This document shows, in pieces, positions 9,436 to 19,835 of a stretch of DNA of 30,348 nt. The stretch lies in IMG/VR virus record IMGVR_UViG_2568526312_000003, one strand, 5' to 3'. The position numbers were made by a program, and so were the translations under genes. The DNA is from a virus (lineage: Duplodnaviria > Heunggongvirae > Uroviricota > Caudoviricetes). Position 1 is the stretch's first letter. Each line of letters begins with the position of its first letter. The notes under the pieces are model-generated. The model made no database searches. It was not told where the DNA came from and saw only the letters and a list, made by a program, of their open reading frames with translations.

Positions 9436-9762
9436 ATGACTAAAAATACTCGTTTTTCCCCCGAAGTCCGTCAGCGGGCGATTCGTATGGTTCTGGAAAG
9501 TCAGGATGAATATGACTCACAGTGGGCGGCAATTTGTTCCATTGCCCCAAAGATTGGCTGTACGCCGGAGACTCTGCGTGTCTGGGTTCGCCAGCATGAG
9601 CGGGATACCGGGGGCGGTGATGGTGGGCTCACCAGCGCTGAACGTCAGCGTCTGAAAGAGCTGGAACGTGAAAATCGTGAACTGCGCCGCAGTAACGATA
9701 TCCTTCGCCAGGCTTCCGCTTATTTTGCGAAGGCGGAGTTCGACCGCCTCTGGAAAAAATGA
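9436..9762 (+). CDS. IS629 transposase OrfA (HTH)
   Basis: 108 aa [22 protein letters not shown]... matches IS629/IS3-family OrfA as recalled. Confidence 0.9.
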
Positions 9763-10649
9763 TGCCACTGCTGGATAAGCTGCGTGAGCAGTACGGGGTC
9801 GGACCGGTATGCAGCGAACTGCATATTGCCCCGTCAACGTATTACCATTGTCAGCAACAGCGACATCATCCGGATAAACGCAGTGCCCGTGCGCAGCACG
9901 ACGACTGGCTGAAGAGAGAGATACAGCGCGTATACGATGAAAATCATCAGGTGTACGGTGTGCGTAAAGTCTGGCGTCAGTTGTTACGGGAAGGAATCAG
10001 GGTGGCCAGATGTACAGTGGCACGTCTCATGGCGGTTATGGGACTTGCCGGTGTTCTCCGGGGTAAAAAGGTCCGTACGACCATCAGCCGGAAAGCCGTT
10101 GCCGCAGGCGACCGCGTAAACCGTCAGTTCGTGGCAGAACGACCTGACCAGCTGTGGGTGGCTGATTTTACTTACGTCAGCACATGGCAGGGCTTCGTCT
10201 ATGTGGCGTTTATCATTGATGTGTTTGCCGGATACATCGTGGGGTGGCGGGTCTCATCGTCTATGGAAACGACATTCGTGCTGGATGCGCTGGAGCAGGC
10301 GTTGTGGGCCCGTCGTCCGTCTGGCACCATCCATCACAGCGATAAAGGCTCTCAGTATGTGTCACTGGCCTATACGGAGCGACTAAAAGAAGCCGGATTA
10401 CTGGCATCAACAGGGAGTACAGGCGACTCGTATGACAACGCGATGGCTGAGAGCATCAATGGTCTTTACAAAGCGGAGGTAATACACCGTAAGAGCTGGA
10501 AAAACCGTGCAGAAGTGGAACTGGCCACACTAACGTGGGTGGACTGGTATAACAATCGACGATTGCTGGGAAGGCTGGGCCATACTCCTCCGGCAGAAGC
10601 AGAAAAAGCTTATTATGCTTCCATCGGAAACGATGATCTGGCAGCCTGA
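9759..10649 (+). CDS. IS629 transposase OrfB (DDE integrase core)
   Basis: 296 aa with the DDE region (WVADFTYV...HSDKGSQY...[15 protein letters not shown]); frameshift window ggaaaaaatga at 9752-9762. Confidence 0.9.
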
Positions 10650-12695: not shown

Positions 12696-12894
12696 AAATA
12701 AAGGGATAACGATGATAGTTTGAGAAAAACAGAAATAACACTTTTGTGGCAAAGCATGGTGCCGGGTGCCTCCCGGTGAATTCAGTATCAGCACCTGAAT
12801 CCGCGATTACCCCATATTCCTTCTTGCTGATTGCCCCACCGCACAGGGGGATTCACCATGCAGAAGTGTTTTTAATAAACAGCAAACAAAAAAA

Positions 12895-13660: not shown

Positions 13661-13737
13661 TGGTGCGTTGTACTGGGTTCGAACCAGTGACCGATTGCTT
13701 AGAAGGCAATTGCTCTGTCCGGCTGAGCTAAAAACGC
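13661..13737 (-). tRNA. tRNA-Arg (anticodon UCU)
   Basis: Cloverleaf on minus strand, anticodon loop CTTCTAA, T-arm GGTTCGAAC, 3' CCA encoded. Confidence 0.8.
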
Positions 13738-13750
13738 AGAATACCGATAA

Positions 13751-13829
13751 TGGACCGCCATCGGAGACTCGAACCCCGCGAAACCAGCTTCGAAGGCTGG
13801 CGTTCTATCCCGATGAGCTAATGGCGGTA
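13751..13829 (-). tRNA. tRNA-Arg (anticodon UCG)
   Basis: Anticodon stem CCAGC/GCTGG, loop CTTCGAA, T-arm GGTTCGAGT, CCA end; exact 5' end uncertain by 1-2 nt. Confidence 0.7.
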
Positions 13830-13834
13830 TGTGA

Positions 13835-13910
13835 TGGTGGCCCTTGCTGGATTTGAACCAGCGGCCTGGCGATTATGAGTCGCTCGCTCTCACCACTGAG
13901 CTAAAGGGCC
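13835..13910 (-). tRNA. tRNA with CAU anticodon (Ile2/Met, ileZ-like)
   Basis: GGCCCTTTAGCTCAGTGG...CTCATAA...GGTTCAAATCC...AAGGGCCACCA; 7-bp acceptor stem, anticodon CAT. Confidence 0.8.
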
Positions 13911-16675: not shown

Positions 16676-16831
16676 TTACTCCTCAGGTTCGTAAGCTGTG
16701 AAGACAGCGACCTCCGTCTGGCCGGTTCGGATTCGTACCTCGCAGAGGTCTTTCCTCGTTACCAGTGCCGTCACTATGACGGTTAAACAGATGACGATCA
16801 GGGCGATTAACATCGCCTTTTGCTGCTTCAT
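16676..16831 (-). CDS. hok: Hok/Gef family type I toxin (HokD/RelF-like), with in-frame Mok-like upstream extension to 16888
   Basis: MKQQKAMLIALIVICLTVIVTALVTRKDLCEVRIRTGQTEVAVFTAYEPEE; SD aggaga; 70-aa in-frame extension resembles Mok. Confidence 0.85.
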   Translation of the reverse strand: MKQQKAMLIALIVICLTVIVTALVTRKDLCEVRIRTGQTEVAVFTAYEPEE

Positions 16832-17074
16832 AACCTGCTTCTCCTTGCCTTTCGGCGCGTAAGAGGCTAACCTACGTTTGTGAAGCATAGATTGGGCCTC
16901 AGATTAATGTTAAGCGTCTTGCAGGACGCGTAATGTTAACTGGGGCTTTTCTCTGTCTGCCTTACGGTGGCATGCCCGAGGCAGACAGCCTCAAGCACCC
17001 GCAGCAATTCTACTTAACTCTCGCTTTACAGCAAACCGTTTTGCCCGATATGGGAATTCCCATACGGAATGAAT

Positions 17075-17288: not shown

Positions 17289-17852
17289 TCATTGGTTCTC
17301 CCCCTGTGTCGCTTCTACTGCGATCTGACTGGCGTATTCGTTAATGGTAACGATAAGTTCTTGCTCGGCCTCATCCAGACAACTACCGATACCTCGCCTG
17401 TCCACTTCAGAAGCATCGAAATCTGCACGAAGCCTGGCGACCTTCAGGATTGCGGACAACACCTCATCAGGGATTGCCGGAGAGTTGGTTGACGTTTCCG
17501 AGATTATCCGAAAATTATTGGTTGACGAACCCTTATTTTCCCGAAAGTTTCCAGCCTGAAGCATGGCGGCGCGGTGACACCAGATAATCCAGCCAAGCGC
17601 CATATCCCATGCCATGTATTCTCTATCGCCATTTTTTGCTCTGCGGCGATCTACAGATTCCCCGAAACGCTTCTCCATAAATAATTCATAGGCTGCCCGT
17701 TCATCCGATACTGATGCCAGTGATGCCAGTGCAATTTTTAATGCGGTAAGCATGTTGTTTTGATCTTCATCGAGTCCGAACGGTATTTCATCCCGTGATG
17801 ACTCAATTCCGGTAATCGTGTTCTGTAGCCATTCTTTGGTTAATTCAGTCAT
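17289..17852 (-). CDS. hypothetical nin-region protein (187 aa)
   Basis: Long intact ORF in operon orientation; no motif recognised. Confidence 0.5.
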   Translation of the reverse strand: MTELTKEWLQNTITGIESSRDEIPFGLDEDQNNMLTALKIALASLASVSDERAAYELFMEKRFGESVDRRRAKNGDREYMAWDMALGWIIWCHRAAMLQAGNFRENKGSSTNNFRIISETSTNSPAIPDEVLSAILKVARLRADFDASEVDRRGIGSCLDEAEQELIVTINEYASQIAVEATQGENQ

Positions 17853-17978
17853 TTTTCACTACCGCCCTTTCGGGCGGTCTCCTGATGTTCTGAGGGTGCA
17901 GGAATCCCTCCGGTTAAGGATTTAATAAAAATCATTTCTGATTTAAATTTTCAGTGTTTAGTTGTTGGTTTATAGCCT

Positions 17979-18290
17979 TTATGCTTCGGCCTTATTTCTC
18001 AGCCATACACAAACAGGACCATCTTCGGTGTCATGTATCGAACCGATAAACCATCCCTCACCTTCTGGTCGCTCAGGTTCCCATGCTGAAATATCAGGGC
18101 CATCTGCGTCCAGATTAAAATCATCTTCATCCATACTACGGATAGCCCACTGAAGATTATTTTTCTCCATCCAGGCGTTAAACTCTTCCGTTGAAATATA
18201 TTCCCGACCATCACAGAATTTTTCATATTCAGGATGCGTCCAGCAGCCATATTCATTACGTTCCACTGGCATTTCTTTAATTACGCTCAT
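17979..18290 (-). CDS. hypothetical acidic protein (103 aa)
   Basis: Intact ORF whose start overlaps the stop of the upstream gene by 4 bp. Confidence 0.5.
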   Translation of the reverse strand: MSVIKEMPVERNEYGCWTHPEYEKFCDGREYISTEEFNAWMEKNNLQWAIRSMDEDDFNLDADGPDISAWEPERPEGEGWFIGSIHDTEDGPVCVWLRNKAEA

Positions 18291-18475
18291 TTACCCCCCT
18301 TATTTAATTTTCTACGACACTTTTTACAATCATCTGGACTTTCGAATGTATCCGGCTCACGCTCATTGCCAAAATACATCCACCCACCGCAAATACTTGT
18401 TATTTCACCTTCAGCAAAATAATGATGTTTTTTCGCCATAAGTGGCCTTGCCCAGCCCGGATTCGTTTTACTCAC
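18287..18475 (-). CDS. hypothetical small protein with CxxC (62 aa)
   Basis: CGGW...CKKCRRK cysteine pairs; 4-bp overlaps with both neighbours. Confidence 0.45.
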   Translation of the reverse strand: MSKTNPGWARPLMAKKHHYFAEGEITSICGGWMYFGNEREPDTFESPDDCKKCRRKLNKGGK

Positions 18476-18828
18476 TTGTTGCCTCCTTTGCGAAGCTCTG
18501 CGACTAACTCGTCACATATGTGCGTCAAAGAGCAAAGTTTGATTGCTGGATGTTCGCGCACCATCTCCACACCCTGCGCCCGCAATTCTGCCAGAAAAGC
18601 GTAGGGGTCAGTTTTTTCACTGTGGTACATGGCATCATAGATAATCATTGCAGCGACACCTGCCTGTCCTGCATCTGTGACGGATATATGCTCAAGGGCT
18701 ACGGCCATTGCGTGTTTCAACCTCTCATTTTCCACCTCAAGCACCACACGATTAGCCTCCAGCTCTTCTATGCGTTTTTTTGCTGCTCCCAGCTCAACAC
18801 GCAGCTCCTGATAGTTAATCTCGCTCAT
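18472..18828 (-). CDS. hypothetical protein with N-terminal coiled-coil (118 aa)
   Basis: ELRVELGAAKKRIEELEANRVVLEVENERLK heptad-like; overlapping start and stop. Confidence 0.5.
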   Translation of the reverse strand: MSEINYQELRVELGAAKKRIEELEANRVVLEVENERLKHAMAVALEHISVTDAGQAGVAAMIIYDAMYHSEKTDPYAFLAELRAQGVEMVREHPAIKLCSLTHICDELVAELRKGGNK

Positions 18829-19049
18829 TCTCCTTCCTCCCGCACTGCTGTTTTATATGCCCGAAGCACATGCGATGTTTTTCCTGACACAGTGCTTCTC
18901 AGAAAGAAAATTCCACTGGTGTTTATTACCAGATACGGGTCAGCAAGACGCAGCATATCCAGTATGTGATTATGTTTTCTTGTTTCCAGCACCGTACTTG
19001 AAATAAGCATATGTGACACGGGGCCGAAATCATGATATCTGATTTTCAT
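18825..19049 (-). CDS. hypothetical protein (74 aa)
   Basis: First ORF of a run of four genes with overlapping stops and starts; no motif recognised. Confidence 0.4.
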   Translation of the reverse strand: MKIRYHDFGPVSHMLISSTVLETRKHNHILDMLRLADPYLVINTSGIFFLRSTVSGKTSHVLRAYKTAVREEGE

Positions 19050-19070: not shown

Positions 19071-19835
19071 TTACCCGTTATCTCCTGTCGTTATTTTCTG
19101 TATGACATCACGATGCTTATTAATTTCCCGCAGCGCGGCGCATAAGCGCTCCCACTTCTGAACCTGACCTTTTGCCCGGCGCAGCTCGCGGTTAGCCACA
19201 TGCAGCGATGGTAAAATCAGACCATCCGGATGCTTTCTGATGAACGACGACTGTGACTGCACTGTGACCGCCACACTTTCAGTTTTAATTTCTTCCTGTG
19301 TTTCCGCTTCCCGGACTGGTAACGCAACACCTGCCGGCTGAGGAAAGGCTTTACCATCGGTTTCCGTTACCGATGCAGCTTTCGGCTCTGCCGGTAAATT
19401 ATCGCCCGGTATGCAGTAACGATATTTACCGTCCTGATTTACGCGAATCAGACGACCTTTGCTGACAGCCATCGCCAGTGATGAATTCGCCCGGCGGGAG
19501 GTAATCCCGAACATTAACGCCAGTTCGTCAGCCGACTGAGGACCATGCTGTTCAATCGCGTTAATCAGCATCTCTGCAGTGGTTTTTGGGGCCGCTTCAG
19601 TTGCCTCACTCGTCAGCCACCACATCGACCCCTTGTTATCAGCTTCGCCACGACGCTTCAGCTTCCAGAGTTCGGTAACAGCATCGTCACGGCTGATTTC
19701 AAGACGGGCTGCAATCTCGTGCGACGAGGCTTTTTTCAGTGCTTTCAGTGCGTCAAAAACGGTTTCCATTAAATTTTCCTCCCGGTAAAAATTACTTCTC
19801 AACTCAGACAAAACCGGCCGCCTTCCGGCGCTCAT
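19071..19835 (-). CDS. hypothetical phage protein (likely starts at internal METVFDAL, about 19769)
   Basis: 254-aa ORF; N-terminal HTH-like region ([26 protein letters not shown]). Confidence 0.5.

Follow-up and report, generated by a model that had tools for sequence, protein, structure and literature searches.

Four overlapping accessory genes at the nin position of an O157:H7 lambdoid prophage, among them relatives of Ea22 and orf184

Introduction

What do four small genes contribute to a lambdoid phage when they are packed end to end between its replication genes and Q? The question is raised by virus record IMGVR_UViG_2568526312_000003, a stretch of 30,348 nucleotides (the window, hereafter) that is a lambdoid prophage of Escherichia coli O157:H7. 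Its minus strand carries, between positions 17979 and 19049, four open reading frames (ORFs) that we call g1 to g4 in their 5' to 3' order. A preliminary description of this DNA, made from the letters only, had presented them as a run of genes of the nin region, all of unknown function, and had suggested that they might serve host takeover or anti-defence. The statement on function was too strong, since g2 is, by its sequence, a short Ea22-like protein, from a family with a published pro-lysogenic phenotype, and g4 falls in the family of orf184, for which a phenotype has been published as well. Comparison with phage and bacterial genomes further indicates that the block is a mosaic of four independently mobile accessory cassettes, of which g1, g2 and g4 are of the type found in the exo-xis interval or the pL operon. 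Counter-defence or host interference is the most likely function class of the block, and we give it an even chance.

Gene arrangement and reality of the genes

Listing the ORFs over 16-21.5 kb of the window, with the junctions read on the reverse complement, recovered exactly the four minus-strand frames of the preliminary description. The first, g1 (18825-19049), encodes a basic protein of 74 amino acids (isoelectric point, pI, 9.6) that belongs to PHROG 1001 and has no Pfam family. Ea22-like g2 (18472-18828) encodes 118 residues, with a coiled coil at about residues 5-45 and a separate C-terminal module. The 62-residue mini-protein encoded by g3 (18287-18475, GTG start) is assigned to PHROG 2358, also has no Pfam family and carries a putative zinc site, and g4 (17979-18290) encodes the acidic, 103-residue member of the orf184 family (PHROG 1372).

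Every gene after the first overlaps the end of its predecessor. The junction sequences are AAGGAGAATGAGC (g1/g2), GGCAACAAGTGAGT (g2/g3) and GGGGTAAATGAGC (g3/g4), and the reading of the three junctions on the reverse complement, GAATGAGC, AAGTGAGT and AAATGAGC, gives 4-bp stop/start overlaps: ATGA at 18825-18828, GTGA at 18472-18475 and ATGA at 18287-18290. The starts of g2, g3 and g4 are each served by a purine-rich, Shine-Dalgarno-like run inside the 3' end of the preceding gene, namely GGAGGAAGGAGA within the final codons of g1, AAAGGAGG 6 nt 5' of the GTG of g3, and AAGGGGGG within the final codons of g3. An overlap and a ribosome-binding site in the upstream gene thus occur together at all three junctions, as predicted for a coupled operon, and the compact, coupling-type arrangement that had been proposed is borne out. 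The run is real, yet it is typical of phage early operons and unexceptional. In the same prophage, 4-bp overlaps also join Q and RusA, cro and ydaT, dicB and DUF1482, and DUF3927 and TerB, and homologues of the four genes elsewhere also overlap their neighbors by 1 or 4 bp.

The embedded ribosome-binding sites leave a mark on the proteins. The C-terminal tails of g1 (...REEGE, nt 18829-18845), g2 (...RKGGNK, nt 18476-18492) and g3 (...NKGGK, nt 18291-18306) are rich in glycine and glutamate because their codons encode the Shine-Dalgarno site of the next gene. Similar tails, GKGE and VGGE, are seen in overlapping genes of other phages (two loci, 2480-2501 and 1465-1486). The 3' end of lambda ea22 reads AAAGGAGAGTGA, and embedded Shine-Dalgarno codons may likewise account for the K/R-G-E tripeptide that Ea22 proteins conserve at their C-terminus and that PMC7093339 called a feature of unknown significance.

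The same signals bear on where g3 begins. RefSeq/PGAP annotates a 50-residue protein (WP_001414276.1) that starts at an internal ATG and does not overlap g2, the disputed stretch being 18439-18475. The GTG start has a perfect AAGGAGG at a spacing of 6 nt, and it adds 12 residues; three of these, G7, W8 and P11, are conserved in over 90% of 115 members of the family. The GTG start is better supported because of this perfect site and because it restores the three conserved residues; the database start is probably wrong, and the coordinates of the preliminary description are the better ones.

Selection could be followed by pairwise comparison of non-synonymous (dN) and synonymous (dS) divergence in three of the genes, g1, g3 and g4, with dS near saturation for the g3 and g1 pairs. 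The ratio was about 0.11 for g4 against phage mEp460_4F5 (dN 0.063, dS 0.586), 0.09 for g3 against a Salmonella Mu-like prophage (dN 0.22, dS 2.39) and 0.18 for g1 against Fels-1 (dN 0.44, dS 2.43), values that place all three genes, as judged from these alignments, under purifying selection. One could nevertheless suppose that the block consists of decaying, non-functional ORFs in a defective prophage, and the truncated integrase, the insertion sequence (IS) elements IS629 and IS66 and a TerB pseudogene agree with this. Against it stand four intact frames, families that are conserved across genera, a dN far below dS in the three genes tested, and Shine-Dalgarno sites and overlaps that are all intact, so that decay, already disfavored, is a highly improbable explanation. 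The four ORFs are real genes, and all four families are conserved.

Position and mosaic origin of the block

Gene order was taken from the annotation of one near-identical genome, together with domain scans. On the minus strand, a cro-like gene, YdaT, an initiator with a DnaT domain, a lambda-P-like loader and a DUF1627 gene precede g1-g2-g3-g4; then come a 126-nt spacer, a fifth gene (g5), hokD/sok, a small hypothetical gene that we provisionally call rem-like, DUF968, RusA, Q, three tRNA genes, STnc100 and the lysis genes. The position of the block corresponds to the nin region of lambda, the interval from P to Q.

Position is also the only argument for a housekeeping role, in which the four would be NinB-NinH equivalents acting in recombination or replication. 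None of g1-g4 matched NinB/Orf, NinC-NinH, Ren or any other characterised nin family at E ≤0.1 in Pfam, NCBIfam or PHROGs, and a recombination function is supplied elsewhere in the segment by RusA and DUF968. We regard such a role as the least probable of the explanations considered here, close to negligible. The preliminary description had named a match of all four to NinB-NinH proteins as the result that would speak against an accessory cluster, and no such match was found in the three databases; the genes are accessory. Its label of nin region holds by position and fails by family, since relatives of g1, g2 and g4 occupy the pL operon elsewhere.

The distribution of the genes is that of separate pieces. 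Phage records share only parts of the block at the DNA level: g4, the spacer and the start of g5 are 89% identical in mEp460_4F5, which lacks g1-g3. Near-identical copies were found in differing numbers among 5426 complete E. coli genomes (g1 in 348, g2 in 466, of which 339 are full-length, g3 in 346 and g4 in 792), and g4 is often present twice per genome. The usual place of the g1, g2 and g4 families in bona fide phages is the leftward (pL) operon, in the exo/recT-xis interval or just after N. Salmonella prophages carry g4-family members between recT and xis, mEp460_4F5 and phiSTEC1575 carry them in the pL operon, and mEp213 has one just after N; the g1 family adjoins xis in Shiga toxin (Stx) phages and in Fels-1.

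The protein encoded by g1 (phrog_1001, E 9e-24 in the PHROG search, in which all best PHROGs of the block are classed as 'unknown function') has homologues at 33-49% identity in 102 phage records (tblastn), among them Fels-1, Klebsiella and Providencia phages and many Stx phages; six sequences were aligned. Sequence and family-profile searches against solved structures detected no relative of known structure or function. In Phi24B (vb_24B_2c) and TL-2011c (gp16), the homologues lie near xis and directly after a short DUF1627-like gene, in the same order as in the window, and the DUF1627-like protein of Phi24B has been modelled as a winged-helix domain with a coiled coil and as a possible transcription factor (PMC8614690). 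We considered whether g1 always follows DUF1627 and rejected this, as the pairing is confined to Stx-type phages: the gene directly upstream is Rha-like in a Klebsiella phage and an unknown gene in a Providencia phage, and in Fels-1 it is an uncharacterised gene of 81 amino acids, preceded in turn by an ORF6N-domain gene.

O157:H7 chromosomes match segment 17200-19900 (2.7 kb) at 100% identity, and 342 of the 5426 complete E. coli genomes contain at least 80% of it. A prophage so fixed, 100% identical in 342 O157:H7 genomes, could be taken to carry morons that benefit the lysogen and are expressed from the repressed prophage, for example a superinfection exclusion gene or a toxin-antitoxin pair, and other host-active genes, including hokD/sok and dicB, do lie nearby. 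Identity among O157:H7 genomes reflects clonality, however, and not selection. The genes are embedded in the early operon and co-oriented with it, with no promoter or terminator of their own: a consensus scan gave no terminator-like site within the block, and the promoter-like matches there were marginal (9 of 12 positions) and not clearly more numerous than in shuffled sequence. There was no PADLOC match either, and we consider lysogen-benefit morons improbable.

The g4 protein belongs to the orf184 family

Described beforehand as very acidic, the g4 protein is so indeed, with 25 Asp and Glu against 9 Lys and Arg in its 103 residues (pI 4.2). It matches phrog_1372 with an E of 4e-55 and has 160 homologues, mostly of about 103-108 residues, in Escherichia, Salmonella, Klebsiella, Citrobacter, Pantoea, Erwinia, Serratia and Pectobacterium. 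The family has nine invariant and 25 nearly invariant positions, with the motifs YGxWTHPxY and GWFxGSIHDTEDG. In an AlphaFold2 model (predicted local distance difference test, pLDDT, 83), the protein is a small alpha/beta domain in which the YGxWTHPxY segment packs on the C-terminal hairpin GWFxGSIHDTEDG, and a variable acidic loop joins the N-terminal segment and the hairpin. Longer homologues are chimeras broken in this acidic linker. We rejected the idea that they include fusions of g3 and g4, because they carry other modules and no g4-family gene adjoins g3 homologues elsewhere.

The model matched no known fold, and a fold search of BFVD returned only uncharacterised phage proteins. Searching solved structures with the g4 sequence found nothing, and with the family profile it gave Agenet domains at a non-significant E of 0.7. 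Despite the acidity, there is no fold resemblance to the known DNA mimics Ocr, ArdA and Arn.

A functional lead came from the work of Silas et al., who screened about 200 accessory genes (bioRxiv 10.1101/2023.04.06.535777). A peptide search of their supplementary tables identified a member of the g4 family, UDP0184/orf184 (AFM76385.1, of phage mEp213), which is 46% identical to g4 over its full length (E 4e-34, 106 aligned positions). [quoted passage not shown] Motif searches for g1, g2 and g3 in this accessory-gene library gave no match.

The Ea22-like protein and the mini-protein

The coiled-coil protein announced by the preliminary description is g2, as indicated by weak, sub-threshold matches to coiled-coil families, the best of which is Ead_Ea22. 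This match stays below the gathering cut-off of Pfam PF13935 (18.1 against 27 bits) and covers model positions 75-138 only. PHROG matches are stronger (phrog_492 at E 7e-24 and phrog_368 at E 4e-19, with PHROG 614 also hit), and segments of ev099, D6, HK629 and phiKDA1 proteins that carry the name ead/Ea22-like in RefSeq share 58-86% identity with the C-terminal half. Proteins of the Ea22 family combine a variable N-terminus, a coiled coil and exchangeable C-terminal domains, one of which has been solved by nuclear magnetic resonance (PMC10834534), and g2 has the corresponding architecture of an N-terminal tag, a coiled coil and a variable C-terminal domain. Ea22 is non-essential, assembles as a tetramer and is pro-lysogenic in lambda and in Stx phages (PMC10834534, PMC7093339).

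The CxxC mini-protein that had been noticed is g3, with C50-x2-C53; these two cysteines are invariant throughout the family, as are H18 and C29 (106-115 diverse members). Beyond 16 close homologues, a profile search of 1.84 billion representatives retrieved 895 clusters (50% identity) at E ≤1e-3, mostly stand-alone proteins of 60-75 residues. The protein is basic, like g1, and its AlphaFold2 model (pLDDT 86) places a C-terminal helix, beginning at C50-x2-C53, after a small beta structure. Four invariant residues with suitable spacing are what one would look for in zinc ligands, and we infer that zinc stabilises g3, a mini-domain from a family that is so far uncatalogued. It is not a member of any described zinc-finger family or fold, and it has no Pfam family and no solved relative, even when profiles are used: the family-profile search of solved structures gave the WWE domain of PARP11 at a non-significant E of 0.23. 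Matches to BPTI/Kunitz domains (E about 0.05) were dismissed as chance, g3 having only three cysteines.

Relatives of g3 live in varied company. They occur in Mu-like prophages, between a DUF2786 gene and gemA, in the nin and pL regions of lambdoid phages and in Sf11-type siphoviruses, and in the virulent Wifcevirus phages the relative forms the N-terminal part of a 149-residue protein. An Ea22-like gene stands directly upstream in four of 11 contexts, encoding partners of 118-310 residues, two of which were compared directly with g2 and showed no significant pairwise similarity. That g3 always follows an Ea22-like gene was rejected, the other seven contexts being different; the adjacency is recurrent and not a fixed pair. 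Two unrelated prophages (GCA_002454555.1, 3072-4596, and another, 3285-4629) have a g3 homologue between two Ea22-type coiled-coil genes, and every junction around the homologue in both is a 4-bp overlap.

In another view of the block, all four would be developmental modulators that tune the choice between lysis and lysogeny and the physiology of the host, as do the exo-xis genes (Ea22, Orf60a, Orf61, Orf63 and Orf73). The N-terminal tag and coiled-coil architecture of g2, the pro-lysogenic action of Ea22 in lambda and Stx phages (PMC7093339, PMC10834534) and the usual placement of the g1, g2 and g4 families in the exo-xis region of other phages all point this way. On the other hand, g2 lacks the C-terminal domain of lambda Ea22, the sole phenotype known for the g4 family is the activation of abortive infection, and relatives of g3 are also found in strictly virulent phages, for which the choice of lysogeny does not arise. 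We see developmental modulation as a possible, if tentative, explanation.

A proposed role in counter-defence or host interference

The function class that we prefer, counter-defence or host interference, would work as follows. The block would have been inserted between the replication genes and the hokD-DUF968-RusA-Q genes of an O157:H7 lambdoid prophage and, after induction or infection, would be transcribed within the rightward early operon. Ribosomes handed over from gene to gene would ensure the co-expression of g1-g4, whose products may be small binding proteins, not enzymes, and may interfere with proteins of the host or of defence systems. Among them, g2 would be an oligomeric coiled-coil scaffold of the Ea22 type with an exchangeable C-terminal module, g3 a zinc-stabilised mini-domain, and g1 a small basic protein whose gene often follows that of a DNA-binding regulator. 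The acidic alpha/beta domain of g4, with its invariant acidic hairpin tip, would in some hosts be recognised by the Gop-beta-cII suicide system.

The roles in host takeover and anti-defence suggested beforehand draw indirect support in the case of g4, whose relative orf184 triggers gop-beta-cII. Several points weigh against this function class. PADLOC, whose library holds defence and not anti-defence proteins, gave no match for g1-g4. A protein that an abortive-infection system detects, such as orf184, need not itself be a counter-defence factor. For Ea22, the one further family whose phenotype is published, the effect is on the choice between lysis and lysogeny and not on defence. Finally, the prophage looks defective, with its truncated integrase and IS insertions, so that expression in the present host can only be presumed.

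A more specific proposal joins the pieces: g3 would represent a large, uncatalogued phage family of His-Cys-Cys-Cys zinc mini-proteins that pairs with Ea22-type coiled coils to form a host-interference or counter-defence module, here beside an immune-sensed effector of the orf184 type, g4. This is speculative, and we think it rather unlikely in this precise form.

Neighboring features of the prophage

Further features surround the block, those described up to the tRNA genes all on the minus strand. Upstream, the DUF1627 protein (19071-19835) has winged-helix regions besides its DUF1627 domain (Pfam E 7e-79), and 21 nt separate the end of its gene from g1. A terminator-like hairpin with a T-rich stretch (19813-19829), a weak consensus match with a 5-bp stem, marks the end of the P-like gene, just ahead of DUF1627. 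Its location is reminiscent of lambda tR2.

Downstream of g4, the 126-nt spacer leads to g5 (17289-17852), which encodes a mosaic accessory protein of 187 residues. The spacer contains a GC-rich hairpin (ACCGCCC-GAAA-GGGCGGT, 17861-17878) about 10 nt upstream of the g5 start. No U-run follows the hairpin, which is conserved in mEp460_4F5, and the fold of the whole spacer has a z-score of -3.1; the hairpin could be an element of RNA processing, stability or translational control. Next come the hokD-type type I toxin gene and the sok antisense RNA (16676-17000; NCBIfam Hok E 1.5e-12, Rfam RF01794 115 bits).

Downstream of Q, at 12718-12890 and 13664-13910, are the STnc100 small RNA (sRNA; Rfam, 101 bits) and the three tRNA genes. 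In Stx phages, stx sits at this post-Q position. In the window, this segment, which was not examined closely, showed no toxin gene in the annotation of the near-identical reference prophage or among the scanned ORFs. A recent preprint on Pas sRNAs describes RusA, TerB and DUF1627 as conserved neighbors of PasA and PasC, and by analogy the prophage may also carry an sRNA of the PasA/PasC type.

Two mobile elements complete the picture. An element of the IS3 family (9436-10649, plus strand) with orfA, orfB and rve domains and an ALIL frameshift pseudoknot (9717-9833) lies between the holin gene and a nanS-type esterase gene; its insertion is strain-specific, because the site is empty in strain PV15-279. 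Within 26864-29749, the truncated integrase is followed by an element of the IS66 family with TnpA, TnpB and a 512-residue transposase, at a place that corresponds to IS1203 in PV15-279, and the prophage is probably excision-defective. Its own pL operon runs from an exonuclease gene through a DUF4224 gene to the truncated integrase and holds almost no accessory genes.

Significance

Accessory clusters in lambdoid early operons are a well-known kind of feature, the host lineage is among the best sequenced, and two of the four families are already in the literature. The findings do not overturn current understanding, and the gain lies in annotation and in testable leads, such as whether g4 triggers gop-beta-cII and what it binds. 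Within these bounds, four points are new. An unannotated O157:H7 gene, g4, is linked to the orf184 family and its published immune-triggering phenotype; g3 points to a large His-Cys-Cys-Cys family that is absent from Pfam; the annotated start of g3 is likely to need correction; and genes at the nin position turn out, by comparison, to be cassettes of the exo-xis/pL type. The prophage in which they reside is present in essentially all of the O157:H7 lineage, and the block illustrates how lambdoid phages shuffle tiny early genes among three regions: after N, exo-xis and nin.

Comparison with known systems

The closest counterpart with a phenotype is orf184, which shares with g4 the motifs YGxWTHPEY and GWFxGSIHDTEDGPxCVW, the form of a stand-alone protein of about 105 residues and a place in a lambdoid early accessory region. 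The acidic linkers differ in length and sequence, and so do the settings: the pL operon of mEp213, two genes after N, for orf184, and the pR operon, after P, for g4. The triggering of gop-beta-cII is established for orf184 alone.

Lambda Ea22 begins with (M)SEINSQALR, g2 with MSEINYQELR; in both a coiled coil and a separate C-terminal module follow, and the PHROGs matched by g2 are those matched by the ead/Ea22-like proteins of RefSeq. However, g2 is shorter (118 against 182 residues), its C-terminal module, unrelated to the lambda domain, matches no solved structure in sequence, and its gene occupies the nin position instead of the exo-xis interval.

At the level of whole regions, the block can be set beside two models. 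The lambda nin region (ren, ninA-ninI) has the same P-Q position, the same compact, co-oriented small genes and the same dispensability, but the block proteins have no sequence relationship to any Nin protein. Compared with the exo-xis region of lambda, P22 and Stx phages, the cassettes of the window are on the other, rightward side, after the replication gene P. The two are alike, nonetheless, in being strings of tiny, overlapping, non-essential early genes with a mosaic distribution, and Phi24B and TL-2011c even have a DUF1627-like gene followed by a g1 homologue there, as the O157:H7 prophage does here.

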